The position numbers and the translations under genes are program-made. 64,000 nucleotides of DNA from an uncultured Acidobacteriota bacterium (GTDB lineage: Bacteria > Acidobacteriota > Terriglobia > UBA7540): contig CAWDSK010000003.1 in NCBI GenBank assembly GCA_963804995.1, forward strand, positions 1,024,001-1,088,000, written 5' to 3'. Below, one piece after another: positions 10,998 through 24,491 of this stretch. The notes under the pieces were generated by a model that worked only from the letters and a program-made list of their open reading frames with translations, made no database searches and was not told where the DNA came from. How positions within the stretch are numbered: the stretch's first letter is position 1; each line of letters begins with the position of its first letter.

Positions 10998-11333
10998 TTT
11001 CCTGTTTGCCGTGAGAATAGCTCCCCTCCTTGACTGAGGAGGGTATTAAGGAGCTGTGGGATACGGGGACAAATCGCGCGGCTCAACCACCCACTAACCC
11101 CCTCCTTATCAAGGAGTTGAATCACCCACTGCTCTGATTTCTTGGCTACCCCTTAGCCCCAAGGAATCATCATATATACAATCAGCCTTAATGTCAGTTG
11201 CGCACCACCTGACCTTCCCTATACAATGCGCCCCAGATTCATTGGCCACGGCCTTCCGTGGATTCTCTTTCCGGAAGTGATCCCGTTCGCGATGACCGTG
11301 GGGAGCCAGGTTCTTTTCCAAAGGAGTCATGCT

Positions 11334-12072
11334 GTGAAGACATGGGCACACATTAAAATCAGGTGGATTATTCTGTTGGCCGGATTGGCCCTGGCAACCG
11401 CACTGGTCGGGTGTAAGAGCAACCCGGTATCCTCCGAAACTTCCGGTAATGCGCCGAAACCCCAACCCTCGACCCCGGATACGACTGACGCAAGGCGGTT
11501 GAGCAACGGCGCGAATAAACTTCTCGACGCACTCACCAAGCCGACCAACTCCTTCCACTTCTCGTATAAAGGGCAGGTGAATATCAACGAGAAGTATTTT
11601 CGGGATAGAACCCAGGCGCCCCATGTGGGCCCAGTGAACGTGGAGGCAGACGTTTCCACCGGACGAACTTGATCTAGTGGAGACACGCGGTACAACCAGG
11701 AAGGAGTCCAAAGCCAAAAAGGGGGATGAAATGAAATTGGCTTTGGCGAACATGACGTTGCTGGGGCTCATGACCAATGTGAATTTCTCCATCGCGGTGG
11801 GCTCCACGGTGAGCTCCTTGCCGAGCAGCGACATGCTGGGAACGAGTTTGGCCGACAAATACACCTTCGACACGAAACAAGCCAATCCATCCCAAAAGAT
11901 GGGGCTCGACGTGGCCCGCGGGATGCTCGCCCCCATTCAGGAGTCGGCGGGCACGGCCTGGATCGCGAGGAATTCCGGCTTGCTGGTGAAATTCAATATC
12001 GACACGGACTACCTGGATAAGAACGGCCACGCCTGGAAAGAACACTACGAGGGTGAGGTAACCCCGAAGTAG
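11334..12072 (+). CDS. Hypothetical lipoprotein (frameshift near 11670)
   Basis: GTG start after AAGGAG; hydrophobic stretch ending in lipobox LVGC; continues into ORF 11677-12072. Confidence 0.65.
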
Positions 12073-15546: not shown

Positions 15547-16629
15547 CTAGCCGGGCTTGCGGCCCGACATCATCTCGATGCCCAGAGTCTCGAAGCCCAG
15601 TTGGGGGTTAACATTGCGAATCTGCAAGCGATAGGCCTGATCGAGCCCGGCCTTTAGTCGCTCAATTCCCTCCAGGCCGAGCTTCGGGGCCCAGGCCTGA
15701 AGGCGCGGCTGCACGTCAATATTCACAACCACCTCGGGGGAGCTCGCCAACAAGACATGCAGTAGATCCGCCAGCACGGAATAACCAATTTCGAGCGTGC
15801 CGGCAAAGTCATCGCGATTTTCGGTGAGCCCACGGGCGGAGTCGAACAGCAGGCGCCAGTCCGGTGACGCCCCGGGAGCGGCGCGGCCCGCAGTGGCTTC
15901 CAGGAAATCCAGCCAGGGCTTGCGGCGACGCTCGTATTCAGAGGGGTCAAAGGCACGGGCGCGCGCCACGCTGCCCGCCGCCACGCGTGCGGCGAGAGCC
16001 AGTTGGGGCTTCGTGAAATCTTTCTCGCGGGCGAGAAGTTCCTGAATGAGCGGCTCCTCTACGGGCTGGAAAGGGAGGCGCTGACAACGCGAACGGATAG
16101 TCGAGCGCAACTCATTGGCATTCGGGCAAACCAGGATAAAGCGGGTCGTCTCCGGCGGTTCCTCCAGCACCTTGAGCAAGAGGTCAACGGCCTGCCAATG
16201 AATGGTCTGCGCGTCGTCGAGAATGAAGAGGCGGAGTGGGAACTCAAAGGGCCGCGTGTAAGCTATGGCGCGAAGTTGGCGGATCTGTTCCGTGAGAATG
16301 AATTTGGTGAACGGCTCAAGGATTTGGAAATCGAAGTAGACCAGGCCCTCCACGCGGCGGGCGGCCTCCTTGATTTCACGGCGCCGTGCCGAATCTTCCC
16401 GCGCGGCAGCGAACATCTGCTCAGCCTTGCGGCAGCGTGCGCAATGGCCGCAGAAATCTCGAGGGCCGGTCTCGCAAACCAGCGCCTTGGCCAGCATCAG
16501 GGCCAGGGTCTTCTTGCCCACGCCGTCCGGTCCGGTAAAAAGCAGGGCGCCCGGCACACGGCCAGTCACCAGCATTTCACGAACTGCGGCCACCGCCTGC
16601 GGATTACCGAGAAAAGAGTCGAAGCCCAT
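15547..16629 (-). CDS. holB: DNA polymerase III subunit delta'
   Basis: LLFTGPDGVGK, Zn module C...FCGHCARC, LLKVLEEPP, TIRSRCQ; start taken at MGFDSFLGN. Confidence 0.93.
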   Translation of the reverse strand: MGFDSFLGNPQAVAAVREMLVTGRVPGALLFTGPDGVGKKTLALMLAKALVCETGPRDFCGHCARCRKAEQMFAAAREDSARRREIKEAARRVEGLVYFDFQILEPFTKFILTEQIRQLRAIAYTRPFEFPLRLFILDDAQTIHWQAVDLLLKVLEEPPETTRFILVCPNANELRSTIRSRCQRLPFQPVEEPLIQELLAREKDFTKPQLALAARVAAGSVARARAFDPSEYERRRKPWLDFLEATAGRAAPGASPDWRLLFDSARGLTENRDDFAGTLEIGYSVLADLLHVLLASSPEVVVNIDVQPRLQAWAPKLGLEGIERLKAGLDQAYRLQIRNVNPQLGFETLGIEMMSGRKPG

Positions 16630-16832
16630 GTATTCCTCAGAGAAAGCCTTGGGTTTGTGTATCCGTCCTGTGAACTCACCTTTCCCCGGGTTTGTCACTT
16701 ACGTGCGATGGCGAGCTGGACACACATCTATGCGCCAGGGTTATTGCATAACAGTCAACCTTGTGGTGAAGCTGTTCGAGGGGGCCCAAACTCTAACGCA
16801 AAGACAACTGGACATTCTTTTGCATATTTTGT

Positions 16833-17423
16833 CTAGGCGCATTTCGAAATAGCCAACACGTCCCCAAGCTCCAGTCCCACCCTAGCACGGAGTTGGCGAT
16901 TCAGCTGGCGTTTCTGTAAGGGGATTGCTGACAATACGTAGAGGTACTCGTTCAGGTATTCATCAGTAGCCAAGGCGACGAACAATCGCTTAAGGTCGAG
17001 AGGCCTGACCACTATGCAATCACTGGGTAAGGTCCTGGTTGACGCTGCAAATTGGGGAGAGAATATAACCGAGAGTCTAGCGGGAGGCTTGTTGAGATGA
17101 CGTTGGGACAGTTGTTTTAGGCGGTGATCAGAACTCCCGTAGTACCCAAGGGCTCTGCCCCTCACATTCGAACCTGAGCGCAGCCGGAGGCTCAGATCGA
17201 TAATGTCGTAGTCTCTTCGGTGAGCCACCCGTAGAAAACTAAAACCGCTTGCACGCAAGTAGTCTTTGAGCGCAGGCCGGCACTGAGCCAGAGTTCCGGC
17301 TTTCCATTGATTTTCGAAGAACGCCTCGGCTGCTTGTATGTAGCGACGGTAAGTGTACCGATAATTAAGATACCTTTCAGTAAAATGGCTTACGAGATTA
17401 CGCAGAGGTGTTGAAGTTTGCAT
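16833..17423 (-). CDS. Hypothetical 196-aa protein, possibly a degenerate Mrr-like PD-(D/E)xK fold
   Basis: ATG at 17423 with AAAAGGAG inside the end of the upstream gene; YLRASGF...DIIDL...VIFSPQF...IVVRPLDLKRLF resembles the Mrr_cat pattern. Confidence 0.6.
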   Translation of the reverse strand: MQTSTPLRNLVSHFTERYLNYRYTYRRYIQAAEAFFENQWKAGTLAQCRPALKDYLRASGFSFLRVAHRRDYDIIDLSLRLRSGSNVRGRALGYYGSSDHRLKQLSQRHLNKPPARLSVIFSPQFAASTRTLPSDCIVVRPLDLKRLFVALATDEYLNEYLYVLSAIPLQKRQLNRQLRARVGLELGDVLAISKCA

Positions 17424-17427
17424 GCCG

Positions 17428-18198
17428 TTAACTCCTTTTCCTGCGCAAGAGAAGGACAATTCCCAATGCCGCCAAGGCGGCTCCACCTACGAGTGTCCGG
17501 GAGGGCAGTGGCAGGATTGCAAACAAACTCAAGAAAGCTGCAGCTACGACAGCACCGACCGCGGCCAGGAAAATCCATTCTTGAATCCTCTGGCTCACCG
17601 CAGTGAGAGCCTCCAGCCGCTCAAACCTGTAGTTGACTGTGCTTAAAGTAGAGGTCATCTCGTCCAGCCGTTGGCTGATCTCTATGATGCTATAAGAAAT
17701 CCGTTTCGGCACCGCCGGGGTTTGCTGGGGTTTGCTGATTTCCTCTCCGCCTTTGTACTTACAACTGGCCTGATTGTTGAGATGTTCGAACTCGCAGGTC
17801 GCAAGCGGGTCTTCATATACTAATTCGATCGGCGAATCTGTAATGTTTGCCAACGGGAAAAAAAGTAAACCGTTGTAGCCGGGGTCAATGAGCCCGCCAG
17901 AGTAAAATAACCCACGAAGTTGATGAAAGGAGCGCAACGATAGCCGACCTGCCATATTCTGCGGTAGCTTAATCTTCTCCCGACTCGATACAATGCAGGA
18001 CTGGCCGGGCTGCAAACTAAACGAACGTTGGATAATTAGTGAGTAACCACGAAGTCCATCTGGATGTGCAACGATTACGGTTTCTCCGATCCTGAAGTCA
18101 TAAGATGCGCCCTTTAGGCGGTTAGGTTCGAAAGGGGATATAAGACCTTGTTCCTCGGCGGCGGCTTCAATTTCTGTATCAACAAGTGTCTTACCCAT
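17428..18198 (-). CDS. dCTP deaminase/dUTPase-fold protein with C-terminal coiled coil and two TM helices
   Basis: ISPFEP...ASYDFRIG, LQPGQ, EKIKLP, LRS, GLIDPGYNG; then heptad segment ISQRLDEMTSTLSTVNYRFERLE, two hydrophobic helices and an RRKRS tail. Confidence 0.85.
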   Translation of the reverse strand: MGKTLVDTEIEAAAEEQGLISPFEPNRLKGASYDFRIGETVIVAHPDGLRGYSLIIQRSFSLQPGQSCIVSSREKIKLPQNMAGRLSLRSFHQLRGLFYSGGLIDPGYNGLLFFPLANITDSPIELVYEDPLATCEFEHLNNQASCKYKGGEEISKPQQTPAVPKRISYSIIEISQRLDEMTSTLSTVNYRFERLEALTAVSQRIQEWIFLAAVGAVVAAAFLSLFAILPLPSRTLVGGAALAALGIVLLLRRKRS

Positions 18199-18205
18199 GT
18201 CGCCA

Positions 18206-18921
18206 TCACCTCTTGTCAGTTTCGACGCTTTCGATCAAGTCCAGTTGCTCCGAAGAATCATATCCAGACTCTGAGAAAGCTCGCTTCACAATAGTGAAAA
18301 TGTTCTTGCGGACAACCTCAATCGGCTCATTGCCATCGACTGTGAAAATCTTATGTCCTTCCGATTGCAGCCGCTTGATGCAAGTTTGGTAGTTGTCGCG
18401 AACAAGGGTCAGCCTTCCTATATCCTCGAATAGTTCCACGTGCCAACGCTGTGCATCCATCCTTTTCTTTGCTATCTCAGACGGCACGTCCAAGAAGATA
18501 GTGACATCAGGGGGCAGACACTTGAGGTTTATTTGACGGACCCACTCAAACTCTAAGTCGACGCTCTGATATGCGAAGCTGGAAAGCCAGTACCGATCAG
18601 CAACTACGGTTATCCCCTTCTCGAGTTTTGGAAGAATATCTGTTGCAAGATGGTCCATTCTGTCCGCAGCAAACATTAGTGCCATGGCGGCTGAGTCGAG
18701 ACTAGAATAGCCACCTTGCGACGCAGTTGTGGAGTTTGTGGGAGAAAAGAGGCGCCTAGACAAAGCGAGGCGGATGATGGCGCCAACAGGGCCAGCGGTT
18801 GGCTCCTTGGTTAAGTACGAGAGTCTGTTTTGTTTGTCAAGCCACTTCTTGAGTAACTCAGCCTGAGTCGTGATGCCCGACCCGTCTGTTCCCTGAGCAC
18901 TATGAACCTACCCCGAGCCAT
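18206..18921 (-). CDS. tmk: Divergent thymidylate kinase (1-bp frameshift near 18895)
   Basis: MARGRFIVL[E]GTDGSGITTQ...TKEPT...LMFAADRMDH...VADRYWLSSFAYQ...PDVTIFLDV. The ORF track captures only 18206-18763. Confidence 0.85.
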
Positions 18922-19042
18922 CTGTCACCCCTTCGGAAAATTGGAATTCAACATCGTGAAGCGCGCATATCTTACCACACGCCGCAGTCGAGCTCTCGTT
19001 TTCACAAATACAAGTATGCCACACTGTACCTCGCATATATCC

Positions 19043-19192
19043 TTACTCTTTGGCATTTCGCACATTTCTCACAACGTCCCGACTCCAATATACATAGCCC
19101 CCTCGAAGCGAGCGCTGAAACGGAAATCGAAGCTGCGTGCTCTTGCCGGTGCCGTCAATCCCTTCGAAAGTGATGAAGAGGCCGGGTTGCAT
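19043..19192 (-). pseudogene. tmk: 5' stub of the native thymidylate kinase
   Basis: Manual translation MQPGLFITFEGIDGTGKSTQLRFPFQRSLRGGYVYWSRDVVRNVRNAKE*: canonical TMK P-loop, then loss of homology and a stop after 49 aa. Confidence 0.85.
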
Positions 19193-19477: not shown

Positions 19478-20179
19478 ATGGAGAATGTAATCAGCATTAC
19501 AGAAAACGTGGCGCGCGTCGAAGAGCGCATCACCGCCGCCTGCCGGCGCAGCGGCCGCAAACGCGAGGAGGTGCGTCTGGTGGCAGTTTCGAAAACGCAT
19601 CCGCCAGAGCAAATTCGCGCGGCCTTTGATGCGGGCCTGCGTGACTTCGGTGAAAACCGGGTGCAGGAAGCAAAGGCCAAGCGGCCGGCGCTGGCAGACT
19701 TGGCCATTACCTGGCACCTGGTGGGGCATCTCCAAACCAACAAGGCGGGGGCCGCGCGCGAAATGTTCCATTGGGTACATTCTGTGGATTCTTGGCGCCT
19801 GGCTGAGAAGCTCGCGCAGCTCGCCTCGCCAGACGCTGCGCCCTTACCGGTGCTAATGGAAGTGAATTTGGGTGAGGAGGCATCCAAAGCGGGCATGCGC
19901 GTGGCCGATGTGCTGGATAGCGCTGCGCAGATTGGTCAGCTTCGAACGCTCGACCTGCGTGGCCTGATGGTGATTCCTCCGTTTCTCGAGGATCCCGAAC
20001 AGGTCCGGCCGTACTTCCGGCAATTACGCAGACTGGCGCGTGAGATTGAGGCGCACAACTTGCCGAACGTCTCGATGCGCGAACTTTCCATGGGCATGAG
20101 CCACGATTTCGAAGTGGCCATCGAAGAAGGCGCCACGATCGTACGCGTGGGAACGGCAATCTTTGGAGCGCGTGGTTAG
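19478..20179 (+). CDS. yggS: PLP homeostasis protein, YggS family
   Basis: LVAVSKT, FGENRVQE, WHLVGHLQTNK, LSMGMSHDFEVAIEEGATIVRVGTAIFG. Confidence 0.96.
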   Translation: MENVISITENVARVEERITAACRRSGRKREEVRLVAVSKTHPPEQIRAAFDAGLRDFGENRVQEAKAKRPALADLAITWHLVGHLQTNKAGAAREMFHWVHSVDSWRLAEKLAQLASPDAAPLPVLMEVNLGEEASKAGMRVADVLDSAAQIGQLRTLDLRGLMVIPPFLEDPEQVRPYFRQLRRLAREIEAHNLPNVSMRELSMGMSHDFEVAIEEGATIVRVGTAIFGARG

Positions 20180-21949: not shown

Positions 21950-24491
21950 TTGAGAATTCGACCCCTTGCACTTTTTCTTGGCGTGATGATTCTGGGGATG
22001 GCGCGCGCTGCATCCGGGCAGAGCAGCGGCAACCTGGCCGATTGGACGATCTACGTAACGAACGACACGTGTCCTGATTACACGTGGGGATTCTCTGAGG
22101 ACGTGACGCGGAGAAGCTTTGCCGATCTGGTGCGGGCGCATCTGGATGAAATGCAGCGCACCGACGGCGAGCGCGTCGAGAACCGTGACCACTACAACAT
22201 GGCGGTGACGCAGGAGGCACTGTGCTTCCTCAAGGTACCCGGAGCGGCGCGATGAACTGGTTCGGCGCATTCACGAGGGCAGGGTGTTCGTCAGCCCCTT
22301 CCTCAATAACTCACTCTGGGGCTTCCAGAGTGTCGAAGGAATGATCCGCACGCTATATCCTGCCCGCCGCCTGGAACGAGGCTGGGGCATGCCTATGACG
22401 GTGGCCCATCACATTGAACTGCCCTCCTTGCCCTGGGGTGTCGCATCAATTCTCGCCGGCTGCGGAGTGCGCTGGCTGCTGGTGCCGTTCTACGATTTTG
22501 ACTCGACGTTTGCAAGTCTGGACAATCCACCGCTCTTTGCCTACGAAGGGCCGGACGGGGCACGACTGCGGGTCATCATGGACCCGTGGGCCTCAGGAAA
22601 ATGGAGCTATGCGCAAGGCGCCGCGGTGCTCGGCAATCCCGAACTGATTTCCCGACAGTGGCTGCCCCATTATGCAGGTTTGGGTGACAAGTACCCTTTA
22701 AAGGCGGTACTGGCCAGCGGCACGCACAGCGATTACTCGCCCCGGAGCGCGTCGCAGGCGCCGGGATTCGCCGACGCAATCATCCATTACAACGCGAGAC
22801 CGGGGCCGCATCCCCGACTGGTGAACGCCATTCTCCCCCAATTCACGGAACAGGTTGACCAGGAGGAAGCACACCGGCCCTTCTTGAGAGTCCTGCGCGG
22901 TTCGTTTGGAAATTCGTGGGAGTCGTGGCCGGTCAGCCTGGCGAAGTACGCAGCCGCCATGCGTGAGGGCGAGCGACGTTTCCTGGCGGCGGAAGCGTTG
23001 ATGGCCCTGGCAGGGTGGCGAAACCCTTCGGCGGTAGACTCCAGTCGCCCCGACCGCGAACGCGCTGAATGGGATTTGGCAATGCTCGGCGATCACGCTT
23101 GGAACGGCGCGGACGAAACCAACAAGCAAGTGAATGCGGCTCTGCGGCGGAAGTGGTCGGAAGAGTTGTTGTCAATTGACCAGCGGCTGGCCCGCCAGGC
23201 ATGGGCCGGAATTGGGCTCAAGGAGCACTCGGATTCATTAATCGTATTCAACAGTCTGAGTTTCCCGCGCACGGGCCTGGTTTGCGTGGAGCCGGCGCCG
23301 GGCGTGACCGGCGTAGCGACCGAAACGTCGGGGCTGAATGCCCAGTGGGTCGATGAAAACGGCCGGCACGTGTTGTGCTTTGTATCGCCCAGGGTGGAGG
23401 GGTTTGGATTCAAGCGCCTGCTCATGACGCGAAGTTCGACCACACCCGCGAGGGCGGAGAACCGCCTTCGCGCGACTGACCGCGAATTGGAAAGCCCTTA
23501 CTACAGTCTAACGGTTGACCCGGCAACGGGCGGAATCTCGAATCTGGTGTGGAAGGCCACCGGCAGGCAGCTCCTCAAGAGTAGCCAGGGACGGACGGTT
23601 GGGCAAACCCTCTTTTTTGACGGGCAAGACCATCCGCTCGAAGATGTGAAGTCGGAGGTTGTCTCTACCGGGCCGGTGCTGGCGCGGTTGAAGATTGTGG
23701 GGCGAACCGCCGGCATTGATCTTACGACCTTTGTGACGGTCTATGCTGATCTCGATCAGGTTGATTTTGATATGCGTGTAAAGAAGCCCCTCTCGTCACA
23801 AGAACAGCGGCTGACGCACATTTTTCCCGTAATACCATCGGGGGCAATGCTGCGAATTGAAACCACTGGGGCGGTGGTTCGGCCGCAAATGCAACCCGCG
23901 GGGGATATGTTGCCAGGCTCGGACTTGCGGCGCTTGGTGGTGCAGGGGTTCGTCGATGCTTCTCTCGCGGGGGGTGAGGGAGTTACCCTGGCCCCCCTCG
24001 ATTCCTTCCTCCTGCGCGCCGACCTGGATGCTGTGACTTTTGAAGCCCTGGGCAACGATCAGGACTACAAAGAGGTGATCAGGGACCAGGCTGGAGAGAC
24101 GGAGTTCCGCTTTCGTTACAGCCTGCGAGCCCACCGGGGGGGTTACCAAAGCGCGGGCGCATTTGCCTGGAGCCGGAGTGCGGCTACTTCCTTGTTAACA
24201 GCTTGGGGTGAGTTATCGCGAAACTCCTTGCCCCGGCTGGTGGTAGATCAAGCCCGTGCCATCGCCACTGCTTTCAAGCCTGCGGACGAGGGGTCAGCAC
24301 GCGGGGTAATCGTTCGCCTGTGGGAGACGGGAGGAACTTTCGGACCGCTTCGGCTGGGCACAGGGGGGTTCCGGCGATCGTATCGCTGTGACCTGCTGGA
24401 ACGTGACCTGGGGGAATTGAGAATGGACGAGGGGGAAGTGGCGGTGCCGCTCGAAGCCAACGGTTTTGGATCAGTTCGGCTGGTTCGGTAA
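21950..24491 (+). CDS. Secreted GH38/alpha-mannosidase-like glycoside hydrolase (frameshift near 22235)
   Basis: Signal peptide; DYTWG, DHAWNG, IVFNSLSFPR, LESPYYSLTVDPATGGI, AFKPADE...IVRLWE GH38-like architecture. Confidence 0.7.

Follow-up and report, generated by a model that had tools for sequence, protein, structure and literature searches.

A foreign 2.5-kb stretch in place of the native tmk gene between yggS and holB in an Acidobacteriota genome

As described by Wirth et al. (2023, PMC10653934), the dTMP kinase gene tmk of Pseudomonas putida KT2440 is split by a 65-kb island, and a T4-like dNMP kinase (dNMPK) serves as the essential replacement. Similar tmk islands occur in Acinetobacter, Psychrobacter, and Halomonas according to the same account, which also describes replacements that stand alone between mltG and holB without an integrase and suggests that island genes were purged while the kinase stayed. 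The general scenario, in which tmk is broken and a replacement is brought in, is already published in this form for Pseudomonas. The term "xenologous gene displacement in situ" is used in PMC1274311, which cites Omelchenko et al. 2003. As given in PMC3169407, GX4GK[S/T] is the standard P-loop motif in the definition of the type II dTMP kinases.

The locus compared here lies in a 64-kb window (the whole stretch of DNA that was analyzed; G000:C3:1024001-1088000) of a 7.55-Mb genome assembled in 9 contigs, with 92% completeness and 1.5% contamination.

Loss of the native tmk at its own locus

Between yggS and holB, the minus strand carries, in this order, a tmk stub ORF, a second tmk (tmk2), a dcd-like gene, and a third ORF (ORF3). 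The features of the locus were as follows.

19478..20179, plus strand: yggS, native flank, divergent from tmk (TIGR00044, E 2.4e-63; 66-79% amino acid identity to genus relatives)
19127..19192, minus strand: native tmk stub, codons 1-22, first strand and intact P-loop GIDGTGKST (from the end of DNA homology and the codon table; GC3 0.73, like holB)
19043..19126, minus strand: 27 read-through codons in foreign DNA, up to the stub ORF stop, not TMK-derived (codon table)
18922..19126, minus strand: 5' spacer within the foreign cassette DNA, 48% GC; a purine-rich site resembling a ribosome-binding site lies ahead of ATG 18921
18206..18921, minus strand: tmk2, foreign TMK-family gene, GxDGSGITTQ, of a clade without the Walker A lysine (TIGR00041, 133.5 bits)
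17428..18198, minus strand: dcd-like gene, dCTP-deaminase/dUTPase-fold domain, predicted coiled segment, and hydrophobic, likely two-helix membrane tail (PF22769, E 3.2e-16)
16833..17423, minus strand: ORF3, 196 aa, ATG 17423, near-orphan (one homolog at 66% identity)
16635..16832, minus strand: 3' spacer, 48.5% GC, containing the right junction and without a detectable tmk 3' remnant
15547..16629, minus strand: holB, the second native flank, with native sequence as far as the start codon ATG 16629 (TIGR00678; 70-84% amino acid identity to genus relatives)

The preliminary description of this DNA had reported a 49-codon minus-strand ORF at 19192-19043 with a TMK N-terminus. This ORF was confirmed; it starts with MQPGLFITFEGIDGTGKSTQLR, and its residues 1-25 match TIGR00041 (E 4.7e-6). 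The gradual decay that had been ascribed to it was not borne out. Stub codons 1-22 share 78-95% amino acid identity with the tmk of genus relatives and show no decay, and a sharp break after codon 22 is followed by read-through into foreign DNA. In a comparison of 16 orthologs, codon 22 had an identity of 0.62 and codon 23 one of 0.02. Alignment of the yggS-tmk-holB loci of relatives, which had been proposed as a check, mapped both breakpoints: DNA homology ended at 19128-19134 and resumed at 16629-16634, placing the join at 19127 instead of the position near 19090 given earlier.

The genus comparison comprised 24 relatives, all with a TMK and a holB match. An ordinary tmk lay just upstream of holB in 22 of them, and in the other two holB was on a short separate contig. 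The tmk-holB intergenic site also takes small insertions, as four genus relatives (L039, L051, L052, and L056) carry an extra ORF of ~80-95 codons there. In the genome studied here, ~0.6-0.7 kb of native DNA was swapped for ~2.5 kb of lower-GC DNA. The 3' part of the native tmk was found neither at the locus nor elsewhere in the 92%-complete genome, and since no 3' half remains, the event was a replacement and not a plain insertion. The native tmk was thus lost at its own locus by deletion plus insertion. The earlier claim that a cassette had landed in tmk holds as far as the loss of the native gene goes, but not as a simple insertion. The lack of decay in the stub residues suggests that the event was recent.

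Base composition separates the cassette from its flanks, with a GC content of 0.50-0.51 in its three genes versus 0.61-0.63 in yggS and holB, and a GC3 of 0.53-0.56 versus 0.68-0.73. Promoter and terminator scans of the cassette gave results at chance (shuffle) level. No integrase or recombinase was found among the cassette genes, no tRNA within the window, and no target-site repeat at the junctions, where the repeats detected were short two-copy matches, none framing the cassette.

Ancestry and probable activity of the second kinase gene

The second gene begins at ATG 18921, 121 nt past the stub ORF stop, and is ~28-37% identical to native TMKs, in agreement with the preliminary description of an unrelated tmk about 120 bp on. 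Its closest homologs are metagenomic proteins with 73-55% identity, including P0001 at 73% and a gene of genome G041 at 69%. Trees were built with FastTree on 140 rows and with IQ-TREE (LG+G4, quick search) on a 36-row subset, 104 rows being left out for speed. In both, the tmk2 clade was far from the TMKs of the genus, order, and class. Forcing tmk2 together with the genus and order TMKs cost 190 log-likelihood units (p-AU 1.4e-25), and the grouping with host TMKs that had been named as a refutation was not seen. Searches of 28 other genomes of the genus and of 400 genomes of the class turned up no gene of the tmk2 type. The ancestry of tmk2 is foreign. Homology breakpoints, codon identity, trees, and the AU test agree with the earlier view that the native tmk was destroyed in place and a foreign one now stands there, and we have little doubt that this displacement is real.

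A second carrier of the gene was found in G041, a distant Acidobacterium, where the gene order at locus L065 is likewise yggS, tmk2, the dcd-like membrane protein gene (dcd-TM), holB, and hfq. The tmk2 of G041 has an intact frame, its dcd-TM is 57% identical to the one in the window, and the locus contains no ORF3; no old tmk stub was found there. The G041 holB shares 37% identity with the holB of the window versus 58-67% with those of its own relatives, and a search of 350 other genomes from its family detected no gene of the tmk2 type. Of the 29 loci examined, the 10 from relatives of G041 (L187, L188, L190, L191, L193-L197, and L199) had a third kind of TMK, of the GxDGxGKRTQ type or close to it, in the yggS-holB slot, which points to an earlier displacement in situ there. 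On the simplest reading, tmk2 and dcd arrived twice, separately, in addition to this older displacement. Within the class, at least three replacements have taken place in the yggS-holB slot, two by the tmk2 clade and one by the GKRTQ-type TMK. The slot need not be targeted: foreign DNA that destroys tmk would survive only with a working kinase, and selection alone would gather replacements there.

A PF02223 search of the whole genome returned three places, tmk2 and a tandem pair at C6:1533625-1534901. The pair adjoins a convergent CHAD gene, and the pair and this gene together lie at L004:7581-10128 (G000:C6, about 1533580-1536130). Beside the CHAD gene, at L004:10683-12119 on the minus strand, lies an ORF that we take to resemble a group II intron reverse transcriptase. 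The two C6 genes have 2plr/5h70 as their best PDB match (E 2.7e-57 and 3.1e-41, versus about 1e-14 and 1e-12 for true TMKs), lack FAADR and SSFAYQ-type motifs, and form their own clade in the tree. The first of them keeps GSGKSTQ. Pairs of this type are kept beside the native tmk in most genus relatives. According to bioRxiv 10.1101/2024.08.28.610084, the tandem pair of Sulfolobus (Saci_2019/2020) is the polyphosphate kinase PPK3, which makes no dTDP; that preprint treats 5h70 (STK_15430) as a homolog of the catalytic subunit and mentions homologs in Acidobacteriota. The tandem TMK-like genes beside a CHAD gene and the best PDB match to STK_15430 are common to PPK3 and the C6 pair, and the C6 pair is probably a PPK3 pair. 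A PPK3 operon would also be expected to include ppx and sixA. We accordingly rejected it as a refutation of the tmk displacement. Tandem "tmk" pairs in such genomes are probably PPK3 and easily mis-annotated, so that counting PF02223 matches misleads on the essentiality of tmk.

A native-type tmk elsewhere in the genome, which would have told against the displacement, was not found within the 92% completeness, nor was a dNMPK (PF21448); thyX and an ordinary dcd are present. Because the C6 pair looks like PPK3 and no dNMPK was found, tmk2 is, within 92% completeness, the only candidate dTMP kinase found.

The product of tmk2 scored above the family cut-offs (133.5 bits against 83.25 for TIGR00041; 121.8 bits against 27 for PF02223). 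Its predicted model (pLDDT 86) gave TMK-family structures among the Foldseek matches listed, with a TM-score of about 0.7-0.8, and by this model the protein has the TMK fold. Its P-loop, GTDGSGITT, has isoleucine at the position of the Walker A lysine and departs from GX4GK[S/T]. None of the 117 homologs with a parsable P-loop (120 listed) has the lysine, the position being V, L, T, I, Q, S, or G, in a search that was seeded with query words and may favor Lys-less matches. We rejected the isoleucine as a mark of decay, the loss being clade-wide. In the homolog alignment, D3 (P-loop Asp), D99-R100-Y101 (DRY motif), and R144 (basic LID) are invariant, and the comparison of tmk2 with the G041 gene (pN 0.20, pS 0.89) indicates purifying selection. 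A Lys-less TMK was the only full-length TMK found in all four other carriers (G041, G042, G462, and G1159, the last with a GTTTH form), genomes whose completeness is not established. Among the loci L071-L150, Lys-less P-loops (GTTTQ, GQSTQ, GASTQ, and others) are common and occur in several branches, and the TMK tree requires at least six changes between Lys and non-Lys. In a neighbor survey covering 52 of 112 neighboring ORFs, thyX, thyA, SHMT, dcd, or dCMP deaminase adjoined a Lys-less TMK at 6 of the 23 loci checked; these six loci fall in another Lys-less branch than tmk2 (L109 being outside the tree). The sole Lys-less TMKs and these neighborhoods speak indirectly for function. A literature search of titles and abstract starts returned no assay of a Lys-less TMK.

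In the assembly, the frame of tmk2 that opens at 18921 reads MARGRFIVL, then leaves the TMK frame and stops after 36 codons. The TMK body (GTDGSGITTQ...) runs from 18892 to 18206 in a different frame, which puts the break at 18895-18893, in codon 10. This break is probably an assembly error. Comparison of 1.2 Mb from three genus relatives with this genome (838 ORFs, 267 with a scorable ortholog) gave frame-changing indels of 1-2 nt in 30 of the 267 orthologs, 61 events, some of which may be alignment noise or errors of the relatives. In six of eight cases inspected, a stop follows the indel junction in this genome, and the affected genes include one dnaK-like and one fabF-like gene, which we take to be such from their sequences. 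The motif TCGA, noticed before its enrichment was tested, lay within 15 nt of 14 of the 61 events versus a background of 6.9% (p 2e-5), and by hand count was nearby in 9 of 17 single-indel genes. This pattern suggests that the long reads were systematically wrong where the motif is methylated. In the closest homolog, the residues at the position of the tmk2 break are LEG, which would put an inferred TCGA at that site. Against an assembly error, base gains made up 48 of the 61 events, and the tmk2 break looks like a loss. With TCGA-enriched indels in this share of orthologs, genes of this genome should be called pseudogenes only with care.

Genes of contig C8 carry several indels each. Within the window, two genes (21950-24491 and 11226-12072) each appear to be interrupted by one frameshift, at about 22240-22280 and 11670, respectively, and the inspected stretches there contain no TCGA. 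The stub and the tmk2 body share one reading frame by chance; a read-through fusion in which the stub would supply the lysine to tmk2 was rejected, with two stop codons and ~78 non-TMK codons lying between them.

The explanation we favor, and hold to be likely, is that the native tmk, from its codon 23 almost to the start of holB, gave way to a foreign stretch of 2.5 kb and that tmk2 supplies dTMP kinase, its frame break probably being an assembly error. The replacement would have been a recent, integrase-free recombination event, viable because a replacement kinase came along, and the cassette may be expressed together with holB. That tmk2 is a working replacement, which would act as the dTMP kinase of the cell despite the missing lysine, seems probable by itself. 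The earlier claim that the cassette supplies a replacement stands as to the presence of a foreign TMK-family gene; as assembled, that gene is frameshifted, its Walker A lysine is absent, and its activity would follow from its family features. The frame is broken in the only sequence available, the lysine is missing, a recently dead tmk2 would still show a low pN/pS, and no integrase, target-site repeat, or tRNA at the junctions accounts for the route of entry; these points count against our reading.

We considered whether the replacement is real and tmk2 is nevertheless a pseudogene or an inactive Lys-less pseudokinase, with the C6 pair or an unseen gene making dTDP, and we judge this to be improbable. 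The break at codon 10 would fit such a state, but the assembly often breaks genes. The absent Walker A lysine would fit it as well, but that loss runs through the whole clade while the other TMK motifs are kept. The C6 pair passes the PF02223 cut-off, and its first gene has the GSGKSTQ motif; against this, its context and best PDB match fit PPK3, and G041 has the Lys-less gene, while a C6-type pair was not found there. The 92% completeness leaves room for an unseen gene. Annotation can also mislead, as a P. putida gene annotated "thymidylate kinase" proved dispensable (PMC10653934).

Probable passenger genes and a possible defense role

If tmk2 is the working kinase, the dcd-like gene and ORF3 would be passengers, each separately losable, whereas excision of the whole cassette would be lethal. 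The lock-in of accessory genes proposed in the preliminary description would then apply to tmk2 alone; for the accessory genes the idea is weak, as ORF3 is missing from G041 and tmk2 would be the one essential gene.

The dcd-like protein is a member of a small family (18 representatives at E<=1e-30) in which a DCD/dUTPase-fold domain is combined with a hydrophobic tail at the C terminus. What we take to be the deaminase glutamate of the "TLE" motif is absent, and the protein may therefore bind or hydrolyze nucleotides without deamination. Dcd-like membrane proteins with two tandem DCD-fold domains were also seen (P0129, P0130, P0131, and P0133). ORF3 had no match in Pfam, NCBIfam, or PADLOC; weak leads pointed to restriction-endonuclease-like proteins (Atlas scores 0.87-0.90), and its single-sequence fold prediction had a pLDDT of 33.

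A defense role of the cassette is possible. The cassette would then be a mobile defense module of a Lys-less kinase, a nucleotide-sensing DCD-fold membrane effector, and a nuclease, with the tmk-holB slot as its target and the essential kinase as its means of staying there, a reading we consider unlikely. Its wider form, in which a widespread TMK clade that works without the lysine and a DCD-fold membrane effector make up a compact, integrase-free defense module that repeatedly overwrites the tmk-holB slot and becomes permanent via an essential step, is likewise doubtful. Consistent with such a module, tmk2 and dcd-TM share the slot in two lineages with just 37% identity between their holB genes, and the leads for ORF3, though weak, are nuclease-like. 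We also take the layout of the dcd-like protein, a DCD fold plus membrane tail, to resemble that of sensor-TM abortive-infection effectors. However, only two carriers are known, and the Chloroflexota members of the clade (G042 and G462) have no close dcd-TM alongside. PADLOC matched neither dcd nor ORF3 and gave only partial TMK-domain matches for tmk2 (PDC-M51B, VakA), and the search of titles and abstract starts returned no TMK plus DCD-TM defense system. No recombinase or attachment-like repeat was found, and viral and plasmid relatives were distant, with <=42% identity in IMG/VR and about 32% for the top plasmid rows. Pseudomonas islands are described as hitting tmk repeatedly (PMC10653934), which would speak for targeting, but an unrelated GKRTQ-type TMK also took the slot, so any working TMK can.

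A chimeric mis-assembly that put a tmk2-dcd contig of another organism into the locus is very unlikely, even in an error-prone assembly, as it needs two false joins that preserve yggS-holB synteny in a 1.76-Mb contig and delete only tmk, in a genome with 1.5% contamination where the missing native tmk part was found nowhere else, and as an independent genome (G041) has the same genes in the same slot.

Comparison with known systems

At this locus, a normally essential gene has been overwritten in place, with the breakpoints resolved. The case extends "tmk as landing site" beyond Pseudomonas and its relatives, with a different replacement enzyme and no integrase, and it makes directly testable whether a P-loop kinase without the Walker A lysine can be the only dTMP kinase of a cell. 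Compared with type II (bacterial) dTMP kinases (TIGR00041/PF02223), tmk2 has in common the fold, the P-loop Asp, the DRY motif, the basic LID, and the HMM score, whereas the lysine of GX4GK[S/T] is replaced in its clade in all 117 homologs scored.

The event fits a xenologous gene displacement in situ whose scar can still be seen, in which the newcomer would perform the function of the old gene. A foreign gene of the same family stands in the native position, gene order is kept, the flanks are native, and the native ortholog is lost within the 92%-complete genome. Beyond such a displacement, a 22-codon scar and two passenger genes remain, and the event therefore looks recent.

As far as the P. 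putida KT2440 island is described (PMC10653934), both it and the cassette are foreign DNA in tmk upstream of holB that destroys tmk and brings a kinase to replace it. In the island this kinase is a T4-like dNMP kinase, whereas it is a PF02223 Lys-less TMK xenolog here; in P. putida its essentiality was demonstrated, whereas here the kinase role is inferred from sequence. The island spans 65 kb and has two tyrosine integrases and a TetR gene, none of which occurs in the 2.5-kb, three-gene cassette. Both tmk halves remain in P. putida, whereas the 3' part is gone here, and the hosts are a Pseudomonas on the one hand and a bacterium of the same class as an Acidobacterium on the other. By this comparison, the cassette appears to work like the Pseudomonas tmk island but is no member of it.
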